Below are positions 1 to 13,986 of a stretch of DNA of 13,986 nt, one piece after another (positions within the stretch are counted from its first letter, which is position 1; every line of letters begins with the position of its first letter). The position numbers and the translations under genes are program-made. The DNA comes from a virus (Duplodnaviria; Heunggongvirae; Uroviricota; Caudoviricetes): the IMG/VR virus record IMGVR_UViG_2609459823_000005. One strand, written 5' to 3'. The notes under the pieces were generated by a model. The model did not search any database. It was not told the origin of the DNA and saw only the letters and a list, made by a program, of their open reading frames with translations.

Positions 1-732
1 GAGCGGCTAAAACTGGAGATTAAGGTGGCACATATCCGCACTCGCGAAACATATGGAACCCGGCGGCTCCAGACGGAGCTGGCAGAGAATGGCATCATCG
101 TTGGTCGTGACCGACTGGCACGTCTTCGTAAGGAGCTAAGGCTACGCTGTAAGCAGAAACGCAAGTTCAGAGCGACTACGAACCCGAACCACAATCTGCC
201 AGTTGCGCCAAATCTGCTGAACCAGACGTTCGCTCCTACAGCACCAAATCAGGTCTGGGTGGCGGACCTGACGTATGTTGCCACACAGGAGGGATGGTTG
301 TACCTCGCTGGCATCAAAGATGTTTATACGTGCGAAATTGTCGGCTACGCCATGGGAGAGCGCATGACAAAAGAGCTGACAGGTAAAGCCCTGTTTATGG
401 CGCTCAGGAGCCAGCGCCCACCTGCCGGGCTAATCCACCACTCTGATCGAGGTTCACAGTACTGCGCATACGATTACCGGGTCATACAGGAGCAGTTTGG
501 TCTGAAAACATCAATGTCGCGTAAAGGTAACTGTTACGACAACGCTCCGATGGAAAGCTTCTGGGGAACGCTGAAAAATGAGAGCCTGAGCCATTATCGT
601 TTTAATAACCGGGATGAAGCCATCTCAGTAATACGGGAATACATTGAGATTTTCTACAATCGTCAGCGTCGTCACTCTCGTCTGGGGAATATCTCCCCGG
701 CAGCCTTCAGGGAAAAAAAGAACAAATGGTAG
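1..732 (+). CDS. IS3-family transposase OrfB (DDE integrase), 5'-truncated by the window edge
   Basis: The reading frame is open from base 1 (the track's Met at 25 is internal) to TAG at 730-732. DDE-type motifs are visible: WVADLTYV, HHSDRGSQY and CYDNAPMESFWGTLKNE, with a C-terminal ISPAAF typical of IS3-family OrfB. The specific IS name is not recognised with certainty. Confidence 0.85.
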   Translation, partial: ERLKLEIKVAHIRTRETYGTRRLQTELAENGIIVGRDRLARLRKELRLRCKQKRKFRATTNPNHNLPVAPNLLNQTFAPTAPNQVWVADLTYVATQEGWLYLAGIKDVYTCEIVGYAMGERMTKELTGKALFMALRSQRPPAGLIHHSDRGSQYCAYDYRVIQEQFGLKTSMSRKGNCYDNAPMESFWGTLKNESLSHYRFNNRDEAISVIREYIEIFYNRQRRHSRLGNISPAAFREKKNKW

Positions 733-780
733 TGTCCGCTATTGCCAGTACACCTCATAATGAGGTCGAATTACTGCGCA
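1..780 (+). mobile_element. IS3-family insertion sequence, right-hand portion; right terminal inverted repeat not precisely located (somewhere in ~733-800)
   Basis: The transposase orfB ends at 732 and IS3-family elements usually carry a few tens of bp after orfB ending in ...CA (a CA occurs at 779-780). The boundary is an estimate because the left end is outside the window and no IR comparison is possible. Confidence 0.5.
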
Positions 781-1064
781 TTGAATTTTTTTCATAAAAA
801 AAGCATATATCCATTTGATTTGGCATTTGTTTTTTTCGTGTTTCTTATGAGTCATTTTCGCGTTTTTTTTTGAAACGGCTCAATAATGCCAAATCAACGT
901 ATAAGAAATAAACGGAACAGAACGCCTCACTTTAATGGTTTGAGATTTTTCTTGTTTCCGTATTGGTTTAAGCAGAAAATGTGTTTCTTAACATTTAGTG
1001 CTTGGTAATGATTCTCAGTTGCACTACCGAGTGCCCTATTAATGAAATCGTTGGACGTTACGCA

Positions 1065-1103
1065 CAGCACACTGGTAGCTAATGAGCCAGGGGCGGTAGC
1101 GTG
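1065..1103 (+). promoter_or_regulatory. JUMPStart 39-bp element containing the ops site (GGCGGTAGCGTG at 1092-1103); RfaH-dependent antitermination signal
   Basis: The sequence cagcacactggtagctaatgagccaggggcggtagcgtg matches the conserved JUMPStart element found upstream of enterobacterial polysaccharide operons, and its 3' end matches the ops consensus GGCGGTAGnnTG exactly. It sits about 90 bp upstream of the rmlB start. Confidence 0.85.
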
Positions 1104-1192
1104 CCTTGTTTTTGAATCAATGCCCTGGCTTGAATTTTGCATGTCGGTGCCACAGTAACAACTCGCAAACGCAAAGTAGATGGAATAAACTC

Positions 1193-2281
1193 GTGAAAAT
1201 ATTGGTCACAGGTGGGGCAGGTTTTATTGGATCTGCTGTCGTCCGTAATATCATTAAGAATACTCAGGATTCTGTAGTTAATGTTGATAAATTAACCTAT
1301 GCGGGCAATCTTGAATCGCTGGTTGAAATCGAAAACAGCGCCCGTTATGCTTTTGAATGTGCAGACATTTGTGATGCTGAGGCGATGTCGCGTATTTTCG
1401 CCACTCACCAGCCTGATGCTGTTATGCATCTGGCTGCAGAAAGCCATGTAGATCGCTCGATCACCGGCCCTGCTGCTTTTATTGAGACAAATATCGTGGG
1501 CACCTATGTGCTGCTTGAAGCCGCACGTAAATACTGGTCTCAACTTGATGAAACAAGTAAAGCCGCGTTCCGCTTTCATCATATTTCAACGGACGAAGTC
1601 TACGGCGATTTGCCGCATCCTGATGAAGTCCCCGCTGGCACCGCCTTGCCGCTGTTTACCGAGAAAACCCCTTATTCTCCCAGCAGTCCGTATTCCTCAT
1701 CGAAAGCGTCAAGTGACCATTTAGTACGTGCATGGCGCCGTACTTACGGCTTGCCGACCCTGGTGACGAATTGCTCAAATAACTATGGCCCATACCATTT
1801 CCCTGAAAAACTTATTCCGCTGATCATTCTTAATGCATTAGCTGGTAAGCCGTTACCGGTGTATGGCAATGGCGAGCAAATTCGCGACTGGCTATTTGTT
1901 GAAGATCATGCACGCGCCTTATATAAGGTCGTCACTGAGGGGGTTGCGGGTGAGACTTACAATATCGGTGGTCACAATGAGCGTAAGAATATTGAAGTCG
2001 TAAATACTATTTGTACTATTCTGGACGAAATCATTACTGCGAAACCTAATAATATTAGTAGCTTTGCAGAATTAATTACTTATGTCACCGACCGTCCGGG
2101 CCATGATCTGCGTTACGCCATTGATGCGAGCAAAATAAAAGATGAACTGGGCTGGGTACCGCAGGAGACTTTTGAATCAGGTATCCGCAAAACGGTTGAA
2201 TGGTATTTGACTAACCAGGACTGGTGGCAGCGTGTGATGGATGGATCATATGCTGGTGAACGCCTGGGGCTCGCAGAATAA
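1193..2281 (+). CDS. rmlB: dTDP-glucose 4,6-dehydratase
   Basis: Preferred start is the in-frame GTG at 1193, giving [14 protein letters not shown] (Rossmann GxxGxxG) and a length of ~362 aa. The catalytic YSSSK (YxxxK) and other blocks ([21 protein letters not shown]) closely resemble E. coli RfbB as recalled. The track's ATG at 1106 is rejected because that extension overlaps JUMPStart/ops. Confidence 0.92.
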
Positions 2282-2296
2282 AATCGTAAGGACGGA

Positions 2297-3172
2297 ATGA
2301 TGAAAGGTATTGTATTAGCTGGCGGTTCTGGAACTCGTCTTTATCCGATTACTCAGGGTGTGTCAAAACAGTTATTGCCTGTTTATGACAAGCCGATGGT
2401 TTTTTACCCAATATCAGTTCTAATGTTGGCAGGTATTCGTGACATTTTGATTATCACGACGCCGGAAGATATGGCCGCGTTTCAACGCCTGTTGGGAGAC
2501 GGCTCTCAATTTGGTATTCGCCTTTCCTATACTGTCCAACCTTCGCCGGACGGTTTAGCGCAGGCATTTATTCTGGGTGAAGAGTTCATTAATAATGAAC
2601 CTTGTGCTCTGGTGCTGGGCGACAATATCTATTTTGGTCAGAGTTTTGGTAAAAAACTCGAGGTTGCCTCTCAGTTGACCCAAGGTGCGATGGTATTCGG
2701 TTATAAAGTACAGGATCCTGAGCGTTTTGGTGTGGTTGAATTTGATGCGAACTACAAGGCATTGTCCATTGAAGAAAAACCACAGAAGCCAAAATCCAGT
2801 TGGGCAGTAACCGGTCTCTATTTTTACGACAAAAACGTTGTGGAAATGGCGAAGCAAGTCAAACCATCTGCTCGCGGTGAACTCGAAATTACGACACTTA
2901 ACCAAATGTATCTTGAACGCGGTGAGCTTCAGGTAGAGTTGCTCGGACGTGGTTTCGCATGGCTTGACACCGGCACACATGACAGTCTGGTTGAGGCTTC
3001 ACAGTTTATTCATACCATTGAAAAAAGGCAGGGTATGAAAGTCGCTTGCCTTGAAGAGATTGCGTTTCGCAATGGATGGATCGGCAGAGAACAACTTTTA
3101 GCGCAGGCAAAACTGTTCAGCAAAAATGATTATGGTAAGTATCTAAAAGTATTGGCTGGAGAACATGAATGA
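2297..3172 (+). CDS. rmlA: glucose-1-phosphate thymidylyltransferase
   Basis: The N-terminus [16 protein letters not shown](x)[13 protein letters not shown] is the nucleotidyltransferase signature, and the ~290-aa protein closely resembles E. coli RfbA. There are tandem ATGs at 2297 and 2300; the RBS aaggacgg (2288-2295) favours 2300. The stop overlaps the rmlC start (ATGA at 3169-3172). Confidence 0.92.
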
Positions 3173-3705
3173 ACGTCATTGACACTAAAATAAGCGATGT
3201 GAAGATTATTGAGCCAAAAGTCTTTGGTGATGAACGAGGGTTCTTTTTAGAAACATTTGAAAAAAAGAGATATCAAACCCTTTTGAATATCGATATGGAT
3301 TTTGTACAGGATAACCACTCACGTTCCAGCAAAGGCGTACTTCGTGGGCTTCACTTTCAGCGCAATAATCCTCAGGGGAAACTTGTTCGAGTAGTTCGTG
3401 GCGAAGTGTTTGATGTTGCTGTTGATATTCGTAAAGACTCACCAACCTATGGGGTGTGGGAAGGTGTAATTTTGTCAGAAACGAATAAAAAGCAATTCTG
3501 GATCCCACCGGGACTTGCTCATGGTTTCCTGGTACTCTCGGATATTGCTGATTTCGAATATAAATGTACCGACTATTATGATAGCAGTAGTGAAGGCTGT
3601 TTAATCTGGAATGATGAGCAAGTTGGGATTGCATGGCCAGTAATAGACGCTGAGATTAAACTTTCAGCAAAAGATGCTGTTGGTAAGTTACTGCGTGACC
3701 TATAA
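3169..3705 (+). CDS. rmlC: dTDP-4-dehydrorhamnose 3,5-epimerase family protein (RmlC-like cupin)
   Basis: The 178-aa protein has [11 protein letters not shown], the catalytic His in VLRGLHFQ, the GKLVR lysine, [10 protein letters not shown] and a Tyr in FEYK, which is the RmlC fold signature. Whether it performs a full 3,5-epimerisation or a single epimerisation cannot be told from sequence. Confidence 0.8.
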
Positions 3706-3716
3706 GTTTTACTAAC

Positions 3717-3746
3717 AGGCGTAGATATTTTCTACGCCTATTTTTT
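3717..3746 (+). terminator. Intrinsic-terminator-like hairpin between rmlC and wzm
   Basis: A perfect 9-bp stem aggcgtaga (3717-3725) / tctacgcct (3731-3739) with a 5-nt loop is followed by a T-run at 3741-3746. A TATAAT hexamer at 3754-3759 lies just before the wzm start. Confidence 0.55.
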
Positions 3747-3760
3747 GAGGCGCTATAATA

Positions 3761-4540
3761 GTGTTTAATAGTTTCATTCAAGGCCTGATAAATTATCGTG
3801 TTGTACTAAAACAATTAATAAGACAACAAGTAACGCTCAGGTATCGCAGAACAATGTTCGGTTTTTTATGGACCCTGCTTAATCCTCTTCTGAATATGGC
3901 AGTAATAGCGACTGTCTTTTCAATCGTAATGAAATTTCAGATAAGAGACTACGCCATTTTTCTCTTCTCTGCAGTTATTCCTTGGACTATGTTTTCAAAT
4001 ATCATTTCACAATGTTCTAATTCATTGATAGCAAATGAAAATCTATTTAAAAAAATATACTTACCAAAACAGATATTTATAACCGCTAGCGCAGTATCTG
4101 TTTTTATTGATTCGCTTCTGAGTACTATCTGTTTATTCATCATTGCATATTTCTTTGGCGCAAAATTAAGTTTGGCATTGATGTTTCTTCCAGTTTCATT
4201 TGCGATCTTATTTATATTCGCTTATGGTTTGGGTCTGATTTTTTCTGTAGTTTCTGTTTTTTTGCGCGACATGCAGTATCTGATCGGTGTGATTTTGCAA
4301 GCTCTATATTTTATGACCCCTATCATATATCCCGTTGATGCTGTTCCGGAACAGTACAAATGGGTTTTTGCATGGAATCCTATGTACTATTTTGTTGATT
4401 TATTTAGGGATCCAATCTACAACAATCAATTCCCTCCAGCTTATTCATTACAGCTTTGTGCGCTGACTGCCATTATTTCACTTTTGGTTGGTTTGTATGT
4501 ATTTAAAGTAAATGACAAAAAAATTATCTTCAGGTTGTAG
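3761..4540 (+). CDS. wzm: O-antigen/polysaccharide ABC transporter permease (ABC-2 family)
   Basis: The N-terminal motif LRYRRTMFGFLWTLLNPLL is typical of Wzm/KpsM, and the rest of the 259-aa protein is strongly hydrophobic with multiple predicted TM segments. Start is assigned to GTG 3761 with GAGG at 3747-3750; the ATG at 3854 would remove the conserved motif. The 3' end overlaps the wzt reading frame. Confidence 0.82.
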   Translation: MFNSFIQGLINYRVVLKQLIRQQVTLRYRRTMFGFLWTLLNPLLNMAVIATVFSIVMKFQIRDYAIFLFSAVIPWTMFSNIISQCSNSLIANENLFKKIYLPKQIFITASAVSVFIDSLLSTICLFIIAYFFGAKLSLALMFLPVSFAILFIFAYGLGLIFSVVSVFLRDMQYLIGVILQALYFMTPIIYPVDAVPEQYKWVFAWNPMYYFVDLFRDPIYNNQFPPAYSLQLCALTAIISLLVGLYVFKVNDKKIIFRL

Positions 4541-4541
4541 T

Positions 4542-5291
4542 ATGGAATCTAAAATTATTTTTAAAAATGTCTCTCTCGTATTTGATGAACATCAGCAACG
4601 AGGTCTGACGTTCAAAGAGTTATTTGCACGCACTCTCTCCGGTCGGAATAACGCTATAAAGGCGAATAAGAGAAAAGCTTTGGATTCAATAAGTATCGAG
4701 ATAAACCATGGAGAGCGAATCGGTATTGTCGGAAGCAATGGGGCAGGGAAAAGTACGTTCCTAAAAACACTTTGTCGTATTTATGAGCCAACCTCTGGTG
4801 AAATAAGCATATCAGGTAATATTGCACCGTTACTTGAGATTGGGGCTGGATTTAATCCAGAACTAAGCGGAAGAGAAAATATATATTTGAATGGTGCAAT
4901 TCTGGGCCATAGTATTTCTGAGCTTAAAAGTTTGGAAGCAGAAATTATTTCATTTTCAGAATTAAGTGAATATATTGATACACCTGTCAAATATTATTCA
5001 ACGGGCATGTATCTTAAATTAGCATTTTCAATTGCGACGGCAATCAAGCCTGATATTTTAGTTTTAGATGAACTGTTTGCTGGCGGTGACGCGGAATTTG
5101 TTGCTAAAGCTAAAAAAAGAATGGAACATTTCATCGCGGAATCAAGCATTATGTTTTTTGTATCTCATCAATTAGATTTGCTGCAGGAATTATGTACCCG
5201 CGTAATATGGATCGACCATGGTAAATTAATTGCTGATGGTGTACCAGACAAGGTAATTGAAGCATATTTGAATAAAGGTCATCATGATTAA
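4542..5291 (+). CDS. wzt: O-antigen/polysaccharide ABC transporter ATP-binding protein, short form without a C-terminal carbohydrate-binding domain
   Basis: Walker A GIVGSNGAGKST, ABC signature YSTGMYLKL, Walker B ILVLDELFAGGD and an H-loop (FFVSHQ) are all present. The track ORF begins at ATG 4512, but ATG 4542 (MESKIIFKNVSL) immediately follows the wzm stop and gives a typical N-terminus. At ~250 aa the protein is a nucleotide-binding domain only. Confidence 0.85.
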   Translation: MESKIIFKNVSLVFDEHQQRGLTFKELFARTLSGRNNAIKANKRKALDSISIEINHGERIGIVGSNGAGKSTFLKTLCRIYEPTSGEISISGNIAPLLEIGAGFNPELSGRENIYLNGAILGHSISELKSLEAEIISFSELSEYIDTPVKYYSTGMYLKLAFSIATAIKPDILVLDELFAGGDAEFVAKAKKRMEHFIAESSIMFFVSHQLDLLQELCTRVIWIDHGKLIADGVPDKVIEAYLNKGHHD

Positions 5292-6045
5292 TATTATAAT
5301 AGTCAGCCATCAAAATTTAGCTGACATTGATAAAATTCTCACAGAACTTGCGGGTGAAAATGATTATTATACTATTTATGTTCGTGACAATGTTGCTGAT
5401 GAGAATTTGAAGCGCCTTTGTTCTGATTATAACGTCTCATATTGTTCTGGTATTCGCCGAGAAGGCTTTGCCCTTAATAATAATATTGCTGCCGAAAAAG
5501 TATTACACTCATGTGAAATAGCTGATGATGATTATTTCCTGTTTATGAATCCTGATGCATATATTATTCGCGACGAGCTGATCAAACTCTCAACTATTTT
5601 GAGCGAAAAAAAATACGATATGTTCACTGTTGATCTGTATAGTAATGATGAATATACAATAAGAGATCCTTCCATTCGATATTTTCCAACGCTAAAAACA
5701 TTTCTATCTTCTTTTTTATTTGATACTAACAAAAGTATTATTAACAGGGATGCCATTCATCAAGATTTCGACCTGGATTGGTGTGCTAGCTCATTCTTTG
5801 GCGTTAAAGTTGGTTTGTTTAAAAGACTTAATGGCTTTGATTCCCGATTCTTTATGTATTGTGAAGATGTGGATATCTGTTACAGGGCTAAAAAATTAGG
5901 AGCCAAGCTTAGTTATATTGCAAATGTAAAAGCAATACACTACACTCAGAAAAATAGTAAAAAGATGCTCACTAAAAATTTTTATTGGCACGTTAAAAGT
6001 GCCATATTGTTTTTATGGAAAAAGCATACCCTGTCAAAAGGTTAA
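5284..6045 (+). CDS. GT2-family glycosyltransferase, WbbL-like dTDP-rhamnosyltransferase (candidate Rha to GlcNAc-PP-undecaprenol adaptor transferase)
   Basis: The 253-aa protein shares blocks with the E. coli WbbL rhamnosyltransferase as recalled from memory: IIIVSH, VRDN, DDDYFLFMNPDAY, DWCASSF, NGFD, FFMYCEDVDICYR, AIHY and WHVKS. The start overlaps the wzt stop by 8 bp. Confidence 0.6.
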   Translation: MINIIIVSHQNLADIDKILTELAGENDYYTIYVRDNVADENLKRLCSDYNVSYCSGIRREGFALNNNIAAEKVLHSCEIADDDYFLFMNPDAYIIRDELIKLSTILSEKKYDMFTVDLYSNDEYTIRDPSIRYFPTLKTFLSSFLFDTNKSIINRDAIHQDFDLDWCASSFFGVKVGLFKRLNGFDSRFFMYCEDVDICYRAKKLGAKLSYIANVKAIHYTQKNSKKMLTKNFYWHVKSAILFLWKKHTLSKG

Positions 6046-6050
6046 GATAA

Positions 6051-6944
6051 ATGTATTCTGTTGTGATGGGATTCCGCGAAAACTATAAACATTATGGGTA
6101 CACTACTCTTTTTTCTTTATTAACAAATAATAAAAACTCTTTTTTTTCAATCTATCTCCTTTCAGATAATCTGGATTTTGCATTTTTTAAAAAACTGGAG
6201 GATGTTTTTGCTTGCAAAATCATCCCTATTTCTATTTCGGCTGATCATATTGAAAATGTAAATTGTGGCTATCTTTCCTTTGGGACACTAATCCGCTTAT
6301 TAATCGGTGATTATCTTCCTGCTAATGTCGAAAAGGTTCTATACCTTGATGCTGATTTGATAATTGATGGCGATATTCATGAACTTCTTAATTATGAGTT
6401 AGGTTCACAGTATGCGGCAGTCGTAAGATCGAGTGCTCCTTATAAGCATCTCAAGGACATTAGGATAACATCCGAGCAGTACTTTAATGCGGGGGTGATA
6501 CTTTTTAATATGGAGATGTGTAGAAAAGATGATATTTTCATAAAAAGCCTTGATTTGTTAAAACGGAATAATTTTAAATATTTAGATCAAGATGCACTTA
6601 ATATTGCAATGGTAAACAATGTAAAATATGTTGATTCTAAATGGAATTTCGACTCATTTAGAGCAAAAACAATCTTACTTGATAGGAGTTATGCAAATAA
6701 ATACCCTGCAATAGCAATTTATCATTTTACAGGGCGTGACAAACCATGGTTTAAACATTGCATCAACCAGTATCAGAGTATTTATCTTCGTTATTTCGCT
6801 GAAATTCTAGGCTATGATGTTATCAATAATAAAAATAAATTTCAGTATTTTAAATTTAAACTGATTAAATTCTTATTCAGTAACTTTGTAACCCGTAAAA
6901 TTATTTACCATTTAAGAAACTATATTCGGACTAATATTCACTAA
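6051..6944 (+). CDS. GT8-family retaining glycosyltransferase (RfaJ/RfaI/LgtC-like; alpha-hexosyltransferase)
   Basis: GT8 hallmarks are present: the DxD motif in LYLDADLIIDGD, FNAGVILFN, YLDQDALN and the C-terminal HFTGRDKPW (H-x-x-G-x-x-KPW). Length is 297 aa and the donor sugar cannot be assigned from sequence. Confidence 0.75.
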   Translation: MYSVVMGFRENYKHYGYTTLFSLLTNNKNSFFSIYLLSDNLDFAFFKKLEDVFACKIIPISISADHIENVNCGYLSFGTLIRLLIGDYLPANVEKVLYLDADLIIDGDIHELLNYELGSQYAAVVRSSAPYKHLKDIRITSEQYFNAGVILFNMEMCRKDDIFIKSLDLLKRNNFKYLDQDALNIAMVNNVKYVDSKWNFDSFRAKTILLDRSYANKYPAIAIYHFTGRDKPWFKHCINQYQSIYLRYFAEILGYDVINNKNKFQYFKFKLIKFLFSNFVTRKIIYHLRNYIRTNIH

Positions 6945-6953
6945 GGACATTTT

Positions 6954-8333
6954 GTGGAGACTATACAAATAGCCACTGGAGTAAGTCGTAACTTCTTTGA
7001 CCCATTGAGTGTCATGCTTACTTCCTTGCTTGAAAATAATCAATCACATAAAATCAATTTTCATGTTTTGCACAGTGATTTTACGGATGATGATGAAGAA
7101 AAATTTAGCCTTTTGTTTACTAAATATGAAAACCTGGGGCTTAAATTCATCAAGTTAGATGAATCTAAATTAGAAGGGCTTCCCCTTCTGCAACATTTCA
7201 AGATCTCAACGTATTTTCGAATTCTGGCGCCAGCTGTTTTAAGTGAATATGATAAACTCCTTTATCTCGATGCCGACATTATTGTTGACAATGATATTCT
7301 GGAATTATGGCAGACCGATGTCACCAACTATACCCTCGCAGCAGTTCGTGAAGAGAGTATTGTCGCGTTAGATAAACGTTTGAGAATGCCTGCCAATTAT
7401 AAGTATTTCAATGCTGGTGTTGTTGTATTAAATAGTAAAAAAATTCGAGAAGAAAATAAGTTCGGTCCTGTTATCGATTATCTAAAAGAAAATATCAATG
7501 AGATCCTTTATCTTGATCAGGATGCTTTAAATGCTATTCTCTACGATGAATGGTTAGAAATAGACGAGAAATGGAATTATCATAATACCTTTATCCTGAA
7601 AAAAAATAATAACAAAGAGCATATCTTATTAGATAAACCAGTTATTATTCATTATACTGGTCCAGTCAAACCATGGGATGCGGAAAGTTCACATATATTT
7701 AAAAGCCGCTATTGGCATTACAAGAAAATATTAACAGGGAGTGTCGATGAAATTAAAGCTGGTTTTAACATACATAGTACGCTTGCTAAAAGAATAATAA
7801 AATATGCATATAGAGTTATTCTTTCCAATTATTATTTAAGAAAGCTGATTCTTAAAACAAATACATCATTAAAGCAGAGTGAGCATTTTGCGAAATATTA
7901 TTTTAAGTTTAAGGAACGTTTTGCTCCTGCACCTCAGATAATGTCGTCATTCGAAGCGAAGTTAGTTCAAGTTGATGTACCACTTCTAGAATCAACCATG
8001 GATTATGGTTTTTTCAGTATAAGGGAGTTCTTGAACTATATACAAATTTCTGGATATGTTTTCAAAAAAGAGTTTTCTGATAGAAATACTAATAAATATT
8101 TTGTCTTGAGAAACAGTGTCGACCCTAATTTGCTATATTGTTTTAAACTTAACAGTCATGACCATGTTTGGATTAATGATATATATAATGATGGTAATGA
8201 CTATTCAAAAAGTGGGTTCTTTAATTTCATCGGCAAAAGAGAGCTTAAAAGTGGAAGGTATGAAGTTGGATTAATCGTCCAAAATTCAAAAGGTGTACAT
8301 TATAAAATGACTGACACTACAGTAATTATTTGA
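6954..8333 (+). CDS. GT8-family glycosyltransferase with an extra ~190-aa C-terminal extension (two-domain protein)
   Basis: The N-terminal ~260 aa carry the GT8 motifs LYLDADIIVDND, FNAGVVVLN, YLDQDALN and HYTGPVKPW. The C-terminal portion has no GT8 similarity and contains a block (ISGYVF ... LKSGRYEV) that is also seen in the next protein. Start is GTG 6954 with RBS AAGGA at 6943-6947. Confidence 0.75.
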   Translation: METIQIATGVSRNFFDPLSVMLTSLLENNQSHKINFHVLHSDFTDDDEEKFSLLFTKYENLGLKFIKLDESKLEGLPLLQHFKISTYFRILAPAVLSEYDKLLYLDADIIVDNDILELWQTDVTNYTLAAVREESIVALDKRLRMPANYKYFNAGVVVLNSKKIREENKFGPVIDYLKENINEILYLDQDALNAILYDEWLEIDEKWNYHNTFILKKNNNKEHILLDKPVIIHYTGPVKPWDAESSHIFKSRYWHYKKILTGSVDEIKAGFNIHSTLAKRIIKYAYRVILSNYYLRKLILKTNTSLKQSEHFAKYYFKFKERFAPAPQIMSSFEAKLVQVDVPLLESTMDYGFFSIREFLNYIQISGYVFKKEFSDRNTNKYFVLRNSVDPNLLYCFKLNSHDHVWINDIYNDGNDYSKSGFFNFIGKRELKSGRYEVGLIVQNSKGVHYKMTDTTVII

Positions 8334-8343
8334 CGAGGAATCC

Positions 8344-9564
8344 ATGGATATTAAAATTTATTCGTCTTTTTATAAAAAATACTTCATTTATAAAAGCGAC
8401 ATTGTAGAACCTGTTTTTGTTGGTGCGGCCGAAAAGAATAATGATTTAGGCATCATTGGTGATGATACTGGCGATAATATTAGCGATAAAAACGGCACGT
8501 TCAATGAATTAACTTTAATTTATTGGGTCTGGAAAAATACTACAAATCAAGATTATGTAGGCTTCTGTCATTATAGAAGATATTTTATAAATAGAAGCAT
8601 CAGTAAATTTGAAAAAGCATTGCATCTTCTGATTCCACGCGATAAAGAGCGTAGAGAGCGTAAATTATTACGTTTGTTACAGCAGTTTGATAAAAATTGT
8701 GAATCCGAATTGAAAGGATTTGATATAGCGTTACCTAAGCCTATTGTTATGAATCGTACTTTGCGTGAACAATATGCTGATTATCATGATGGCGCGCATT
8801 ATGAGGAAATGGGTAAGGTTATTCGAGAATTACGTCCTGACATGTGGCCTGCTTACGAAGATGCGTCAAATCGAAATACTTTCTTCATCGCTAATATGTT
8901 CATTTTTAGCCGCAAGTATTTTGATCAATTTTGCGAGTTTGCCTTTCCGGTTCTTTTTGAACTAGAGAAAAGGTTAGAAGTGCCGGATGATATGTATCAA
9001 AAACGTATTTTTGGATACTTAGGTGAGCGGTTGGTAACAATCTTTGTAAATTATTTATATCAACAAAAGAATGTTAAATTCAAATATTTTGATCTATTAA
9101 ATACTGATGTTATTTTTTCAAATTACAAATCGTATCTAACCGAAAAAAAATTAATAAGCAGTAAAAATAAAAACTACGTCACTTTTGGTGCTGTTGATAA
9201 TCTAATCAAAATGTCAAACAATTTTTACTGCATGAATGGTTGGGTTATAATTAAAGATCGCGAATCCTATAATGTTACGGTTCAAATTGAGTTATATAGT
9301 GATGAAAACACTATTATGCTTAATAGCGAAAGACAGGATCGGCCTGATGTAACCCGGCACTTTATCAATGTTCATGATGGGTACGTTAATTACGATAATT
9401 GCGGCTATTACACTAGTTTTAAATGTGATGAGATTAAAAGTGGTGAATATAAAATTAAGTTTCATGCATTTGATAAAATAGAGAAAACAACTTCAATTTT
9501 TTATGTTTATGACTGTTTTTTAAAGAAACATAAAAATGAAGTTGAGCTTGTGAGGTTACCATGA
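8344..9564 (+). CDS. DUF4422-type putative glycosyltransferase (WbbI/WbbM-N-like, candidate galactofuranosyltransferase) with a C-terminal extension
   Basis: The motifs ELTLIYWVWKN, VGFCHYRRYF and GYLGERLVTIF match my recollection of the DUF4422 family, which includes known Galf-transferases; this is not verified by a profile search. The C-terminal ~110 aa (NGWVI ... IKSGEYKI) resemble the C-terminus of the preceding protein. RBS GAGGA at 8335-8339; the stop overlaps the glf start (ATGA). Confidence 0.6.
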   Translation: MDIKIYSSFYKKYFIYKSDIVEPVFVGAAEKNNDLGIIGDDTGDNISDKNGTFNELTLIYWVWKNTTNQDYVGFCHYRRYFINRSISKFEKALHLLIPRDKERRERKLLRLLQQFDKNCESELKGFDIALPKPIVMNRTLREQYADYHDGAHYEEMGKVIRELRPDMWPAYEDASNRNTFFIANMFIFSRKYFDQFCEFAFPVLFELEKRLEVPDDMYQKRIFGYLGERLVTIFVNYLYQQKNVKFKYFDLLNTDVIFSNYKSYLTEKKLISSKNKNYVTFGAVDNLIKMSNNFYCMNGWVIIKDRESYNVTVQIELYSDENTIMLNSERQDRPDVTRHFINVHDGYVNYDNCGYYTSFKCDEIKSGEYKIKFHAFDKIEKTTSIFYVYDCFLKKHKNEVELVRLP

Positions 9565-10730
9565 TTAGTTATGATTACATTATTGTAGGCTGCGGTCTTT
9601 CTGGTATTGTTCTGGCAAATAATATTGCTGAGAAATTAAATAAAAAAGTGCTTATTATTGAGAAGCGCGATCATATCGGAGGAAACTGTTACGATTACTA
9701 TGATGAACATGGTGTCCTTGTACATAAATATGGTCCGCATATTTTCCATACAAATTATAAAGATGTCTATGACTACCTTGATCAATTCACTGAATGGTAT
9801 GTTTATCAGTTCCAGGCACGAACACTGATTGATGGTAAAAAAACATTTTTGCCCTTCAACCTGAACACGATGAAGGATATTCTTGACGAGCATTTATATG
9901 ACAAGATATCTAAAAAACTCATCGAAGTTTATGGTTATGATAAAACCGTACCTATTTTCGAGTTAAAAAAATCAGAGGATGAAACCATCCAATGGTTGGT
10001 TGACTATATTTACGATAAAGTCTATGTGAACTATATCGCTAAACAATGGGACATGAAACCCGAAGACCTCGACAAGAGTGTGCTTGAACGTGTTCCCGTA
10101 TATATTTCTCGCGATAATCGATATTTCAAAGACAAATATCAAGTTATGCCACGAGACGGTTATACGGTTATGTTCAACCGGATGTTGGCAAACAAAAACA
10201 TACATGTTCTGTTGAATGCTAATGCAGACGATTTTGTCACGCTGACCGATAAGCATGAAGTTCACTTCATGGGCAAGCCATTTGAAGGCAAGTTGATTTA
10301 CACCGGTCAGATTGATCATCTTTTCAATTATAAATTTGGCGAGTTACCTTATCGTTCCTTGCGCTTTGATTTTGTTAATTACAAAAAAGAGTTCTTCCAG
10401 GAAGTGGCTATGGTTAGCTACCCAAATAATTATGATTTCACTCGTATTACGGAAAGTAAGCATTTGACCGGGCAGGATTGCAAAACGACCACTGTTGTTT
10501 ATGAATATCCCCAGAATTATGATCGTAATGATCCTATCAAAGATGTACCTTATTATCCTGTGCCAAGAGCCGATAACCATGAACTTTATGCAAAATATTC
10601 AGAGCTTGCTGGTAAGTATAAATCTTTGATACTGGTTGGTCGTTTAGCTCAATACAAGTACTACAACATGGATCAGATGATCAAAGTTGCCCTTGATACA
10701 TTTAAAGAAATTCAAGCTGGAGAAAAGTAA
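9561..10730 (+). CDS. glf: UDP-galactopyranose mutase family flavoprotein (NDP-hexopyranose mutase)
   Basis: The N-terminal FAD-binding YDYIIVGCGLSGIVLAN ... KKVLIIEKRDHIGGNCY and HKYGPHIFHTN closely parallel E. coli K-12 Glf as recalled, with conserved blocks throughout the 389 aa. A dTDP-fucopyranose mutase (Fcf2-like) cannot be excluded from sequence alone. Confidence 0.85.
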   Translation: MISYDYIIVGCGLSGIVLANNIAEKLNKKVLIIEKRDHIGGNCYDYYDEHGVLVHKYGPHIFHTNYKDVYDYLDQFTEWYVYQFQARTLIDGKKTFLPFNLNTMKDILDEHLYDKISKKLIEVYGYDKTVPIFELKKSEDETIQWLVDYIYDKVYVNYIAKQWDMKPEDLDKSVLERVPVYISRDNRYFKDKYQVMPRDGYTVMFNRMLANKNIHVLLNANADDFVTLTDKHEVHFMGKPFEGKLIYTGQIDHLFNYKFGELPYRSLRFDFVNYKKEFFQEVAMVSYPNNYDFTRITESKHLTGQDCKTTTVVYEYPQNYDRNDPIKDVPYYPVPRADNHELYAKYSELAGKYKSLILVGRLAQYKYYNMDQMIKVALDTFKEIQAGEK

Positions 10731-11662
10731 TGAAGACTATTTTAATTGTTGGTGGTTCTGGCTTCATGGGTGCGAATTTTACTGAATACTTTGTTGCGAA
10801 AGGCTACAAGGTTATTAGCTTCAGTAATTCACCAACCCGTATCCAGCATGAAAATGTGGTAAATGTTTGCGGTGATAGCCGTGATGCCGAAGCTATTAAT
10901 GAAATTTTTGTTAATCACAAAATTGATTTGGTTGTTTTTACGTTGACGAGTTTTTGGGTGGTTGATGGGGTGAGCTCCTATCAAGATTTGACCGCCATTA
11001 ACCTGACTGCGTTTATCGATGTACTGAATATCATGAAGCGTCACAATGTTAATGAAGTGATTTACATCTCTTCTGGTGGCTCTATCTATGGAGAGTCCGA
11101 TAAGCCGATTCCGGAAGATTCACCGCTCTGCCCGGTCAGTTTTTATGGCTGGATCAAAGAAGCGGCAGAAAGCTATCTTAAATATGAAGCCCGTATTAAT
11201 CCCCATTTGCGCTATCTTGTATTTCGTCCTTCCAATGTTTACGGAAAATATCAGCAGCTCAACCGCATCATTGGTGTAGCGCTTAAAAATACACATTTGG
11301 ACATCCCAATGAATATTTATGGTGGTGCGGATACGAAGAAAGACTATATTTATATCGATGATTTCTGTGAGATCATCTTTAATATCTTGAATAAAAATGT
11401 CTGGAACGAAACGTACAATATTGGTTCTGGTGTCGGAACCAGCATTCGAGAAATTCTGGATCTTGCTCAGGAAGTTGTGAATAAGCCACTTGCTGTTGAG
11501 TATGGAAAACAGAAAGAGGGTGATATCAGTTATAGCGTATTAGATGTTGAGAAAGTTAAGGCTGTAACTGGTAAGCAAAGCTTCACCAACGTCAAAGACG
11601 GCATGCGTAAAATGTATCCGTACGTTGTCGAAGAACTGGCACGTCTGGCAGCGAAGGCCTAA
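10730..11662 (+). CDS. NAD(P)-dependent epimerase/dehydratase (extended SDR) family protein; candidate nucleotide-sugar 4-reductase or 4-epimerase
   Basis: Rossmann motif IVGGSGFMGANF at the N-terminus and catalytic YGWIK (YxxxK) preceded by ISSGGS. Length is 310 aa and the start overlaps the glf stop (TAATG). Precise activity is not assignable by eye. Confidence 0.7.
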   Translation: MKTILIVGGSGFMGANFTEYFVAKGYKVISFSNSPTRIQHENVVNVCGDSRDAEAINEIFVNHKIDLVVFTLTSFWVVDGVSSYQDLTAINLTAFIDVLNIMKRHNVNEVIYISSGGSIYGESDKPIPEDSPLCPVSFYGWIKEAAESYLKYEARINPHLRYLVFRPSNVYGKYQQLNRIIGVALKNTHLDIPMNIYGGADTKKDYIYIDDFCEIIFNILNKNVWNETYNIGSGVGTSIREILDLAQEVVNKPLAVEYGKQKEGDISYSVLDVEKVKAVTGKQSFTNVKDGMRKMYPYVVEELARLAAKA

Positions 11663-11862
11663 TAGCTTATCCTGCTTCTTGAGCAAGAGATGATTGTAAT
11701 GGTTTTGTTAACACTTTTTTGCTCAATAGTGGGCTAGTCCTTTAAAACTTTTTTAGGTTAACATGTTAGTCACGTATCCCGACGGCGAATGCGGCGTCGG
11801 GAATCCACACCTGACAGGAGTTTTGCATGCCTAAGCAACAAATCGGCGTTGTTGCTTAGGCC

Positions 11863-13233
11863 GTGATGGGGCGCAACCTGGCGCTTAACATCGAAAGCCG
11901 TGGCTATACCGTTTCCGTTTTCAACCGCTCCCGCGATAAGACCGAAGAAGTGATTGCCGAGAACCCCGGCAAGAAGCTGGTTCCGTATTATACCGTGAAA
12001 GAGTTTGTTGAATCCTTAGAAACTCCCCGTCGCATCCTGTTAATGGTGAAAGCGGGCGCTGGCACAGATGCTGCTATTGACTCCCTGAAACCCTATCTGG
12101 AAAAAGGCGACATCATTATTGATGGCGGTAACACCTTCTTCCAGGACACCATTCGTCGTAACCGCGAACTGTCTGCTGAGGGCTTTAACTTTATCGGTAC
12201 CGGTGTGTCCGGTGGTGAAGAGGGCGCACTGAAAGGCCCATCCATCATGCCTGGCGGTCAGAAGGATGCCTATGAACTGGTCGCACCGATCCTGACCAAA
12301 ATTGCAGCCGTTGCCGAAGATGGCGAGCCCTGTGTGACCTATATCGGTGCTGACGGTGCGGGCCATTACGTTAAAATGGTTCACAACGGTATCGAATATG
12401 GCGACATGCAGTTGATTTCAGAAGCCTACTCTCTGCTGAAAGGCGGTCTTAACCTGTCTAACGAAGAGCTGGCCACCACTTTTAGCGAGTGGAATAAAGG
12501 CGAGCTGAGCAGCTACCTGATCGACATTACCAAGGACATCTTCACTAAAAAAGATGAAGAGGGTAACTATCTGGTCGATGTGATTCTCGATGAAGCGGCC
12601 AACAAAGGTACGGGTAAATGGACCAGCCAAAGCTCGCTGGATCTCGGCGAACCGCTCTCCCTGATCACCGAATCCGTATTCGCACGCTATATCTCGTCGC
12701 TGAAAGAGCAGCGCGTTGCCGCATCTAAAGTTCTGAGCGGTCCGCAGGCCCAGCCTGCTGGCGATAAAGTGCAGTTTATCGAGAAAGTCCGTCGCGCATT
12801 GTATCTCGGTAAAATCGTCTCTTATGCCCAGGGTTTCTCTCAGTTGCGTGCTGCGTCTGACGAATACAACTGGGATCTGAACTATGGCGAAATCGCGAAA
12901 ATTTTCCGCGCTGGCTGCATCATTCGTGCACAGTTCCTGCAGAAAATTACCGATGCATACGCTGAAACACCGGCAATTGCTAACCTGCTGTTGGCACCTT
13001 ACTTTAAGAAAATTGCCGATGAGTATCAGCAGGCTTTGCGTGATGTTGTAGCCTATGCCGTACAAAATGGTATTCCGGTACCGACTTTTGCCGCTGCGGT
13101 TGCCTATTACGATAGCTACCGTGCTGCGGTACTGCCGGCAAACCTGATTCAGGCTCAGCGTGATTACTTTGGCGCACATACTTATAAACGTACTGATAAA
13201 GAAGGTGTATTCCATACGGAATGGCTGGATTAA
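11863..13233 (+). CDS. gnd: 6-phosphogluconate dehydrogenase (decarboxylating), N-terminal region disrupted
   Basis: The 456-aa ORF matches E. coli Gnd over essentially its whole length ([17 protein letters not shown] ... GVFHTEWLD). The conventional start is ATG 11827, preceded by RBS AGGAG (11816-11820), and would encode MPKQQIGVVA before an in-frame TAG at 11857-11859. The intact ORF therefore restarts only at GTG 11863 / ATG 11866 and lacks the first strand of the NADP-binding fold. Confidence 0.8.
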
Positions 13234-13264
13234 TCTGATATTGTACGTTTTGTCGAATAAATAT

Positions 13265-13288
13265 CCTCCGGCATAGCCGGAGGTTTTT
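13265..13288 (+). terminator. Rho-independent terminator downstream of gnd
   Basis: An 8-bp GC-rich stem cctccggc (13265-13272) / gccggagg (13276-13283) with loop ata is followed by TTTTT at 13284-13288, about 30 bp after the gnd stop. Confidence 0.7.
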
Positions 13289-13364
13289 CAAATGCGCCTA
13301 TAAGGCTCTCTTACCAGCCGCGCCCTAACAGGCGCACACGATCTGACATTTGCATCCAACTTCG

Positions 13365-13745
13365 TTACTTACGGCCCGTAAACGGGCTGCCCGGATAGGG
13401 AATCGATAACTGCTCTCCCATTTTATCCTCTTCAAGCTGGTGCTTTATGTAATCCTGTATCTTCGCCGTGTTCTTACCCATCGTATCGACGTAATACCCT
13501 CTGCACCAGAACTCCCTGTTCCTGTATTTGAATTTCAAATCACCAAACTGCTCGTAAAGCATCAGACTGCTTTTCCCTTTCAGATATCCCATAAAGCCTG
13601 ATACGCTCATTTTGGGCGGGATCTCCACAAGCATATGGATATGATCTGCACAGCATTCAGCTTCCAGAATCCGTACACTTTTCCACTCACACAGCTTTCT
13701 CAAAATACTGCCTGTTGCTCTACGCTTCTCTCTGTAGAACACCTG
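13365..13745 (-). pseudogene. tnpA: IS200/IS605-family (IS200-like) transposase tnpA, 5'-truncated by IS1 insertion
   Basis: The minus-strand ORF encodes FYREKRRATGSILRKLCEWKSVRILEAECCADHIHMLVEIPPK ... YPGSPFTGRK, which matches IS200 TnpA as recalled, including the HuH motif (HIHML). About 27 N-terminal codons are missing; the match stops at 13745, where IS1 sequence begins. Confidence 0.85.
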
Positions 13746-13986
13746 GGTAATGACTCCAACTTATTGATAGTGTTTTATGTTCAGATAATGCCCGATGACT
13801 TTGTCATGCAGCTCCACCGATTTTGAGAACGACAGCGACTTCCGTCCCAGCCGTGCCAGGTGCTGCCTCAGATTCAGGTTATGCCGCTCAATTCGCTGCG
13901 TATATCGCTTGCTGATTACGTGCAGCTTTCCCTTCAGGCGGGATTCATACAGCGGCCAGCCATCCGTCATCCATATCACCACGTCA
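13746..13986 (-). mobile_element. IS1 insertion sequence, terminal ~240 bp (one end at 13746; the rest lies beyond the window)
   Basis: From 13746 the sequence reads GGTAATGACTCCAACTTATTGATAGTGTTTTATGTTCAGATAATGCCCGATGAC..., the canonical IS1 terminal sequence as recalled, and it contains the 3' end of insB on the minus strand. Confidence 0.9.
13761..13986 (-). CDS. insB: IS1 transposase InsB, C-terminal part (partial; the 5' end is beyond the window)
   Basis: The minus-strand translation [72 protein letters not shown] matches the IS1 InsB C-terminus as recalled. The ORF is open to the window end. Confidence 0.85.

Follow-up and report, generated by a model that had tools for sequence, protein, structure and literature searches.

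Does the insertion sequence that stands in front of this O-polysaccharide operon control it, or is it a relic that marks the operon's edge? The window, i.e. the whole stretch of 13,986 nucleotides that was analysed, opens in an IS3-family element upstream of the operon's JUMPStart, where galF and the operon promoter are expected. An earlier note on this DNA, written with an E. coli-type locus in mind, proposed that the element may have inserted into or replaced the native promoter region and could affect O-antigen expression. The element is real, and the orfB stop (730-732) and the JUMPStart (from 1065) lie where the note had put them; however, the IS ends at 757, not at 732, and is a fragment rather than a whole element. 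It stops 307 bp short of the JUMPStart, which is 332 bp away from the orfB stop. As set out below, we think it probable that this piece of IS600 is a fossil without activity: it would be the constant left edge of an O-polysaccharide cassette that was acquired horizontally, is bounded by IS elements and resides on plasmids or genomic islands of E. coli.

IS600, a member of the IS3 family, is common in Shigella and E. coli. Window positions 1-757 (plus strand) align to positions 484-1264, the 3' 781 bp, of a canonical 1264-bp IS600 (L013:1018-2281). Over these 757 aligned bp, the identity is 96.5% when a 24-bp gap is counted and about 99.4% otherwise. The orfB remnant is open from base 1 and extends over 243 codons to 732 on the plus strand, with one internal S to P change; its translation matches PF00665 (rve, 92 bits) as well as rve_2, rve_3 and HTH_21. 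The fragment thus shares with the reference element the right inverted repeat and the rve (DDE) core. In contrast to the reference, it has lost the left of the two terminal repeats (5'-TG...CA-3') together with the rest of positions 1-483, and with them orfA and the programmed -1 frameshift site, which lies upstream of position 484. The C-terminus of OrfB also differs. A 24-bp deletion near the 3' end of orfB removed the normal stop codon, and the frame now ends at the TAG at 730-732: the canonical C-terminus ...AAFREKYHQMAA (ending ...REKYHQMAA) has become ...AAFREKKNKW*, which at the nucleotide level corresponds to a change from ...GGGAAAAATATCATCAGATGGCTGCTTAAAAAAAGAAC to ...GGGAAAAAAAGAAC. 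The deletion junction (706-712) falls between two runs of A, and the altered frame extends into the inverted repeat. The same deletion is common to all copies of the cassette and was not seen among the E. coli IS600 matches listed.

The end of the element was placed by comparing copies. The right inverted repeat (731-757, plus strand; AGTGTCCGCTATTGCCAGTACACCTCA) finishes in ...CCAGTACACCTCA at position 757, and three IS600 copies with unrelated flanks diverge fully past that base, i.e. after ...CACCTCA. The triplet next to the IS end in the window is TAA. An end at 767-771 was also considered and rejected; it depended on a flank resemblance of 7 bases out of 10, which we attribute to chance, the three copies diverging right after ...CACCTCA. 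On the left, base 1 of the window is IS600 position 484, the position at which an IS629 copy directly abuts IS600 in contig L007. The best matches of this IS629 copy (L007 1-862; 98.7% identical) are on plasmids, one of them from an O6:H16 strain; these matches may hint at the host lineage of this variant of the cassette.

The left part of IS600 differs from copy to copy. In L005 the element is complete and split by an IS30 at position about 324-327; in L002, L003, L006 and L008 only positions 324-1264 are left, behind an IS30 remnant; L001 and L004 additionally lack positions 424-1003, an internal deletion of 580 bp. Since no copy has an intact OrfAB, the element is unable to transpose on its own. 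L005 is the only copy that retains both IS600 ends, and its flanking triplets are GGA and TAA, whereas an intact annotated IS600 that served as a control (L013) is flanked by a TCA/TCA target duplication. Without a 3-bp duplication, what is seen today did not arise by simple insertion of IS600 into the DNA that lies to its right. As a side observation, an IS30 at about position 324-327 of IS600 is found both in the cassette (L005 7431-8649) and in an E. coli chromosomal IS600/IS30 relic (L012 727-1342), with the opposite orientation in the latter; the chromosomal relic recurs among the matches listed. This site may be a hot spot for IS30.

The distribution of the block bears directly on how the IS came to lie where it does. 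An index of public assemblies lists the exact RmlB protein in 235 blocks, and in no case on a contig of more than 200 kb. We read contigs from the 24 longest of these blocks and examined ten in context. In all ten, which are E. coli draft contigs, the IS600-spacer-JUMPStart-operon block is at least 99.9% identical, and the DNA on its left is of at least four kinds: an IncF-like leading region (L001, L004) that carries psiB, impCAB and parA and matches a Shigella flexneri plasmid best and E. coli plasmids next; a backbone with PTS, nanE and higBA genes and plasmid matches (L005); a region with AlpA and a group II intron (L002, L003, L006); and the IS629 that abuts IS600 (L007). On the right, the block is flanked by IS200C/IS1 and not by ugd. 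Assemblies of carrier isolates include GCA_013039125.1, GCA_958310955.1 and GCA_052882035.1. The proteins specific to the block are labelled Escherichia coli by their sources. Neither 5,426 complete E. coli genomes nor PLSDB contained the cluster, and a literature search found no paper describing the cassette or its assemblies. A chromosomal galF-gnd context, with colanic acid genes and gnd/ugd/his, was not encountered in the contigs, the left flanks of which consist of plasmid or island genes; galF itself was found neither in the window nor in any of the ten contig contexts. The E. coli-type chromosomal locus assumed by the earlier note is therefore not the setting of this block, which occupies plasmid or island positions in draft genomes and is missing from the complete ones. 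Nor is the insertion recent or strain-specific, since the junction between IS600 and the spacer is identical in every copy examined, whatever lies further to the left. A composite transposon was rejected because the flanking elements differ: IS629 and truncated IS600, or in other copies IS30 or its remnant, on one side, and IS200C and IS1 on the other.

We then asked what lies between the IS end and rmlB. A sensitive blastn search with 733-1200 against the 5,426 E. coli genomes matched only a 43-bp JUMPStart segment; consequently, E. coli references cannot place the end of the IS. A 23-mer from a conserved part of the spacer (961-983) was found in Phytobacter diazotrophicus and P. ursingii among GTDB species representatives, and a longer spacer pattern was found in two metagenome contigs. 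The native gene order in Phytobacter is wcaM, galF, a spacer of about 410 bp, and rmlB; metagenome contig L021 has the same ORF layout. In L018 the gene directly upstream of the spacer (988-1893) matches the galF family TIGR01105 at 670 bits, which bears out the expectation that galF normally sits directly upstream. In the native spacer, a short AT-rich stretch is followed by a GC hairpin (GGAAGCAnAnGTGCTTC) with a T-run, conserved blocks, the JUMPStart and the leader. The hairpin and T-run look like a galF terminator.

Compared with these native galF-rmlB spacers (P. ursingii and P. diazotrophicus), the window is collinear from about 883 to rmlB, at 87-95% identity, and shares with them the T-run, the conserved blocks, the JUMPStart with its ops element, and the leader. 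In P. ursingii, 173 of the 182 positions of 883-1064 (95%), 39 of the 39 of the JUMPStart, 87 of the 89 of 1104-1192 and 1040 of the 1089 of rmlB (95.5%) are identical to the window, so that between 883 and 1192 the identity is 95-100% per segment as against 95.5% for rmlB. Similarity is weak from the T-run at about 848-875 and solid from 883. We therefore take 865-1064 (plus strand) as retained native galF-rmlB intergenic DNA. About 180-200 bp of native DNA are thus kept upstream of the JUMPStart; missing are galF, the terminator hairpin and some 100 bp of the spacer, in whose place the window has IS600 and a 107-bp orphan segment. Downstream of rmlC, the genes of the window differ from those of the native Phytobacter-type loci. 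A manual three-way alignment that included the E. coli galF-galE spacer (M217 layout) revealed the same layout there, with the TTCTTGTTTC block shared. Thus the alignment to reference spacers proposed in the earlier note placed no IS end with E. coli references and nevertheless uncovered a common organization. The note's suggestion that the IS replaced the native promoter region holds insofar as IS600 sits where galF would be and the first 100 bp or so of the spacer, including the hairpin, are gone; it is not supported from about 865-883 onward, where the native intergenic region is largely kept through to rmlB, which on the sequence side comes close to the finding that the note had named as speaking against it.

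The orphan segment (758-864) is AT-rich and part of the block in every copy. No match to it was found in E. coli genomes, in PLSDB, in native loci of the Phytobacter type or in a scan of metagenomes, and a 27-mer taken from it (798-824) had no exact match in metagenome contigs. Its GC content is 30%, compared with 52% for IS600, 36% for 865-1064, 44.5% for the rml genes, 34% for the operon core and 51% for gnd. Predicted secondary structure in 758-1064 was not beyond chance (z = -0.79). A perfect 13-bp inverted repeat (815-827, TTGATTTGGCATT; 885-897, AATGCCAAATCAA) straddles the orphan/native breakpoint, with an E-value of 0.43 that is near chance; its right arm (885-897) is native and also present in P. 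ursingii.

The retained DNA leads into a complete JUMPStart (1065-1103, plus strand), which matches Rfam RF01707 over its full length (1-38) at 59 bits, against a gathering score of 35 (E = 1.2e-11). The matches that identify IS600, the JUMPStart and the native galF are all beyond chance. The ops element (GGCGGTAGCGTG, 1092-1103, plus strand) lies 89 nt upstream of the rmlB GTG start codon (1193). The ops motif, GGCGGTAG, is carried on the non-template strand in the untranslated leader of long polysaccharide operons, and both JUMPStart and ops are located in the 5' UTR of rfb operons (PMC6358824). In uropathogenic E. coli (UPEC), ops is preceded by a sigma-70 signal and by predicted start sites (PMC9765446). 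By this logic, the transcription start of the operon must be upstream of 1065. A strict promoter scan of 600-1300 found no sigma-70 consensus. A relaxed scan returned three matches of 8 out of 12 positions, at 732-761, 857-887 and 988-1015. The first of these, GTGTCC-18-CATAAT, is a hybrid across the junction between the IS and its flank and has a poor -35 element. The third, TTAACA-16-GATTCT (plus strand), lies within a block that is nearly invariant across five aligned native homologues, and we regard it as a weak sigma-70-like candidate for the native promoter. Its predicted start would be near 1022, giving a leader of about 170 nt. The leader of the E. coli O7 cluster is reportedly 173 nt, with which this prediction agrees. 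Most likely, the operon would use its own native promoter, situated in the 180-200 bp retained upstream of the JUMPStart, and the IS would have no necessary role in its expression.

Downstream of the leader are eleven ORFs (1193-11662, plus strand), all of them intact: rmlB, rmlA, rmlC, wzm, wzt, one GT2, two GT8 and one DUF4422 gene, glf, and a terminal SDR reductase/epimerase. The permease and ATPase genes, wzm (PF01061, ABC-2 permease) and wzt (PF00005), occupy 3761-5291, and neither a Wzx flippase or Wzy polymerase family nor rmlD was found among the ORFs of the window. Judged by these genes, the cluster is of the ABC-transporter-dependent O-polysaccharide type. Wzt (4512-5291) is short, 249-259 aa, and without an extra C-terminal domain; a donor search with Wzm found no close relative among GTDB species representatives. 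The terminal SDR (10730-11662, 310 aa) weakly resembles RmlD. The presence of rmlB, rmlA and rmlC without rmlD, together with this terminal SDR, suggests a dTDP-6-deoxyhexose other than L-rhamnose, e.g. 6-deoxy-L-talose.

Beyond the operon lies a gnd gene (11827-13233, plus strand) that is full length relative to E. coli gndA, at 84-86% identity, and hence foreign. Where the native gene has GGT ATG, this one reads GCT TAG, which creates a stop at codon 11 (11857-11859). Gene callers restart the gene at 11866 and predict a 455-aa product without the start of the NAD(P)-binding motif; this product is indexed in 76 blocks. The cassette gnd is probably dead in all copies. An IS200C remnant (13244-13745, minus strand), 98.6% identical to the copies in CFT073, begins 11 bp after the gnd stop, and the N-terminus of its tnpA is cut by the end of an IS1 (13746-13986, minus strand; DDE_Tnp_IS1 match) whose inverted repeat we take to be that of IS1. 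The window stops inside this IS1, at the right-hand repeat boundary of the contig. With IS200C 11 bp past gnd and itself cut by IS1 at 13746, the donor DNA is delimited on the right just as sharply as on the left.

These features would fit the following history. A chromosomal segment may have been captured from a Phytobacter- or Klebsiella-like enterobacterium, with a left-hand cut within the galF-rmlB spacer and a right-hand cut some 10 bp beyond gnd. The captured segment now lies between IS relics, IS629 and truncated IS600 on the left and IS200C and IS1 on the right, and these relics could have offered the homology and the transposition substrates by which the block passed from one replicon to another. 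The native promoter would start transcription; RfaH would then load at ops and carry RNA polymerase through the 10.5-kb AT-rich operon. In UPEC, RfaH bound at ops carries RNA polymerase through H-NS-coated operons (PMC9765446), and we infer a similar dependence on RfaH here.

The alternative closest to the earlier note is that the IS insertion displaced the native promoter and that an outward-reading or hybrid promoter at the right end of IS600, or read-through from the IS, drives or modulates the operon. The ingredients for this exist: orfB and the operon are on the same strand, the hybrid sequence at 732-761 is a weak promoter match, the galF terminator hairpin, which would normally insulate the operon, is missing, and a strict terminator scan found no terminator-like site in 732-1064 (the sole "terminator" it returned is the ops region itself). 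However, the outward-reading promoter that the note had imagined comes down to this one match of 8 out of 12 at the IS end, which the strict scan did not return, and the end of IS600 that bears the element's promoter, the left one, is absent from the window and, in the other copies, separated by IS30 or replaced by an IS30 remnant. Read-through is made less likely by the upstream IS629, whose annotated strand is the opposite one. Across genera, 883-1064 is conserved as well as coding sequence is, consistent with continued use of a promoter there. We therefore consider control by the IS improbable. Some uncertainty attaches to the fossil-boundary reading from the same region: the orphan segment could carry a non-native promoter or regulatory site, the missing first 100 bp or so of the native spacer might hold regulatory DNA, and, with the 24 longest of 235 index blocks read, an IS-free copy could exist unseen.

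It is also conceivable, though unlikely, that the cassette is silent or decaying cargo, a cryptic operon, possibly silenced by H-NS, that confers no phenotype. The nonsense codon in gnd, present in all copies, demonstrates that decay is under way in parts of the cassette, and the operon could accordingly be silent; the flanks are full of truncated IS elements, and the composition of the upstream region (30-36% GC) and of the operon core (34% GC) would be typical of H-NS targets. Yet a redundant, plasmid-borne gnd is expected to be dispensable, the eleven ORFs for biosynthesis and export are all intact, with an identity of at least 99.9% between independent assemblies and between settings, and the JUMPStart/ops is perfect; RfaH acting at ops overcomes H-NS on such operons (PMC9765446). 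There is very little chance that the junction between IS and operon is an artefact, produced by a chimeric contig at a repeat. The window does start and end exactly at boundaries of multi-copy IS elements (IS629/IS600 on the left, IS1 on the right), as one would expect of a short-read contig, but the 757/758 junction is internal and identical in ten contigs from independent NCBI, ENA and Logan assemblies. Considered together, the data favor the reading of the IS600 piece as the inert left edge of an acquired cassette.

Such an arrangement has partial precedents. The classic IS-bracketed case is the form I O-antigen cluster of Shigella sonnei, which is on the pINV plasmid and comes from Plesiomonas shigelloides. 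Like the block described here, it is an O-antigen cluster of foreign origin that an Escherichia/Shigella host carries on a plasmid, with IS elements on either side; unlike this block, which is of the ABC type, it is Wzx/Wzy-dependent, has another donor, other sugars and other IS elements, and its expression is proven. The O8/O9/O9a clusters of E. coli are of Klebsiella origin and have foreign gnd alleles. They share with the window the intergeneric transfer of an ABC-type O cluster with a non-E. coli gnd (84-86% identical in the window), whereas there the chromosomal locus was replaced by homologous recombination and here an extra, IS-bounded block carries an inactivated gnd.

Two further sequences are relatives of this block. 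In Klebsiella pneumoniae BA34918 pIncX3 (NZ_CP036195.1; L011 7245-8270), typed as an IncX3 plasmid, the region upstream of the operon is 93.6% identical to window 928-1192. An IS26 lies 137 bp upstream of the JUMPStart, followed by rfbBADC and an ABC-type O cluster; the record differs from the window in having IS26 instead of IS600, in the presence of rmlD and in its set of transferases. This linear 67-kb record has the look of a related locus captured independently by an IS, or else of a misassembly. In a 12.4-kb metagenome contig (OGXE01002832.1; L020), an IS1 end lies about 30 bp upstream of the galF-terminator hairpin (12283-12403), the spacer, JUMPStart and rmlB follow at 88% identity, and the other end of the contig (54-308) is a gnd 5' end 97.6% identical to that of the window. 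It looks like a sibling IS-bounded rml-to-gnd module.

IS relics beside horizontally acquired polysaccharide loci are common, and this case is probably not one of an IS taking over an O-antigen promoter. What the block represents is an intact, non-E. coli, ABC-type O operon on mobile backbones, present in on the order of a hundred E. coli drafts and in no complete genome. Little upstream DNA seems to be required for an O-antigen operon to be transferable: about 200 bp before the JUMPStart, without galF. If expressed, the operon would offer a plasmid-borne route to O-antigen change, which matters for sequence-based serotyping, phage and serum resistance, and the coverage of glycoconjugate vaccines. 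A bolder proposal, which we put forward tentatively and regard as possible rather than probable, is that the block is a self-contained "serotype cassette": a Phytobacter-like ABC-type operon for what is probably a Galf- and 6-deoxy-hexose-containing glycan, equipped with its own promoter and JUMPStart leader, that IS relics shuttle between E. coli plasmids and islands as the source of a second O antigen. If so, carrier strains would present a second O antigen, determined by the plasmid and overlooked by today's O-typing schemes for E. coli.
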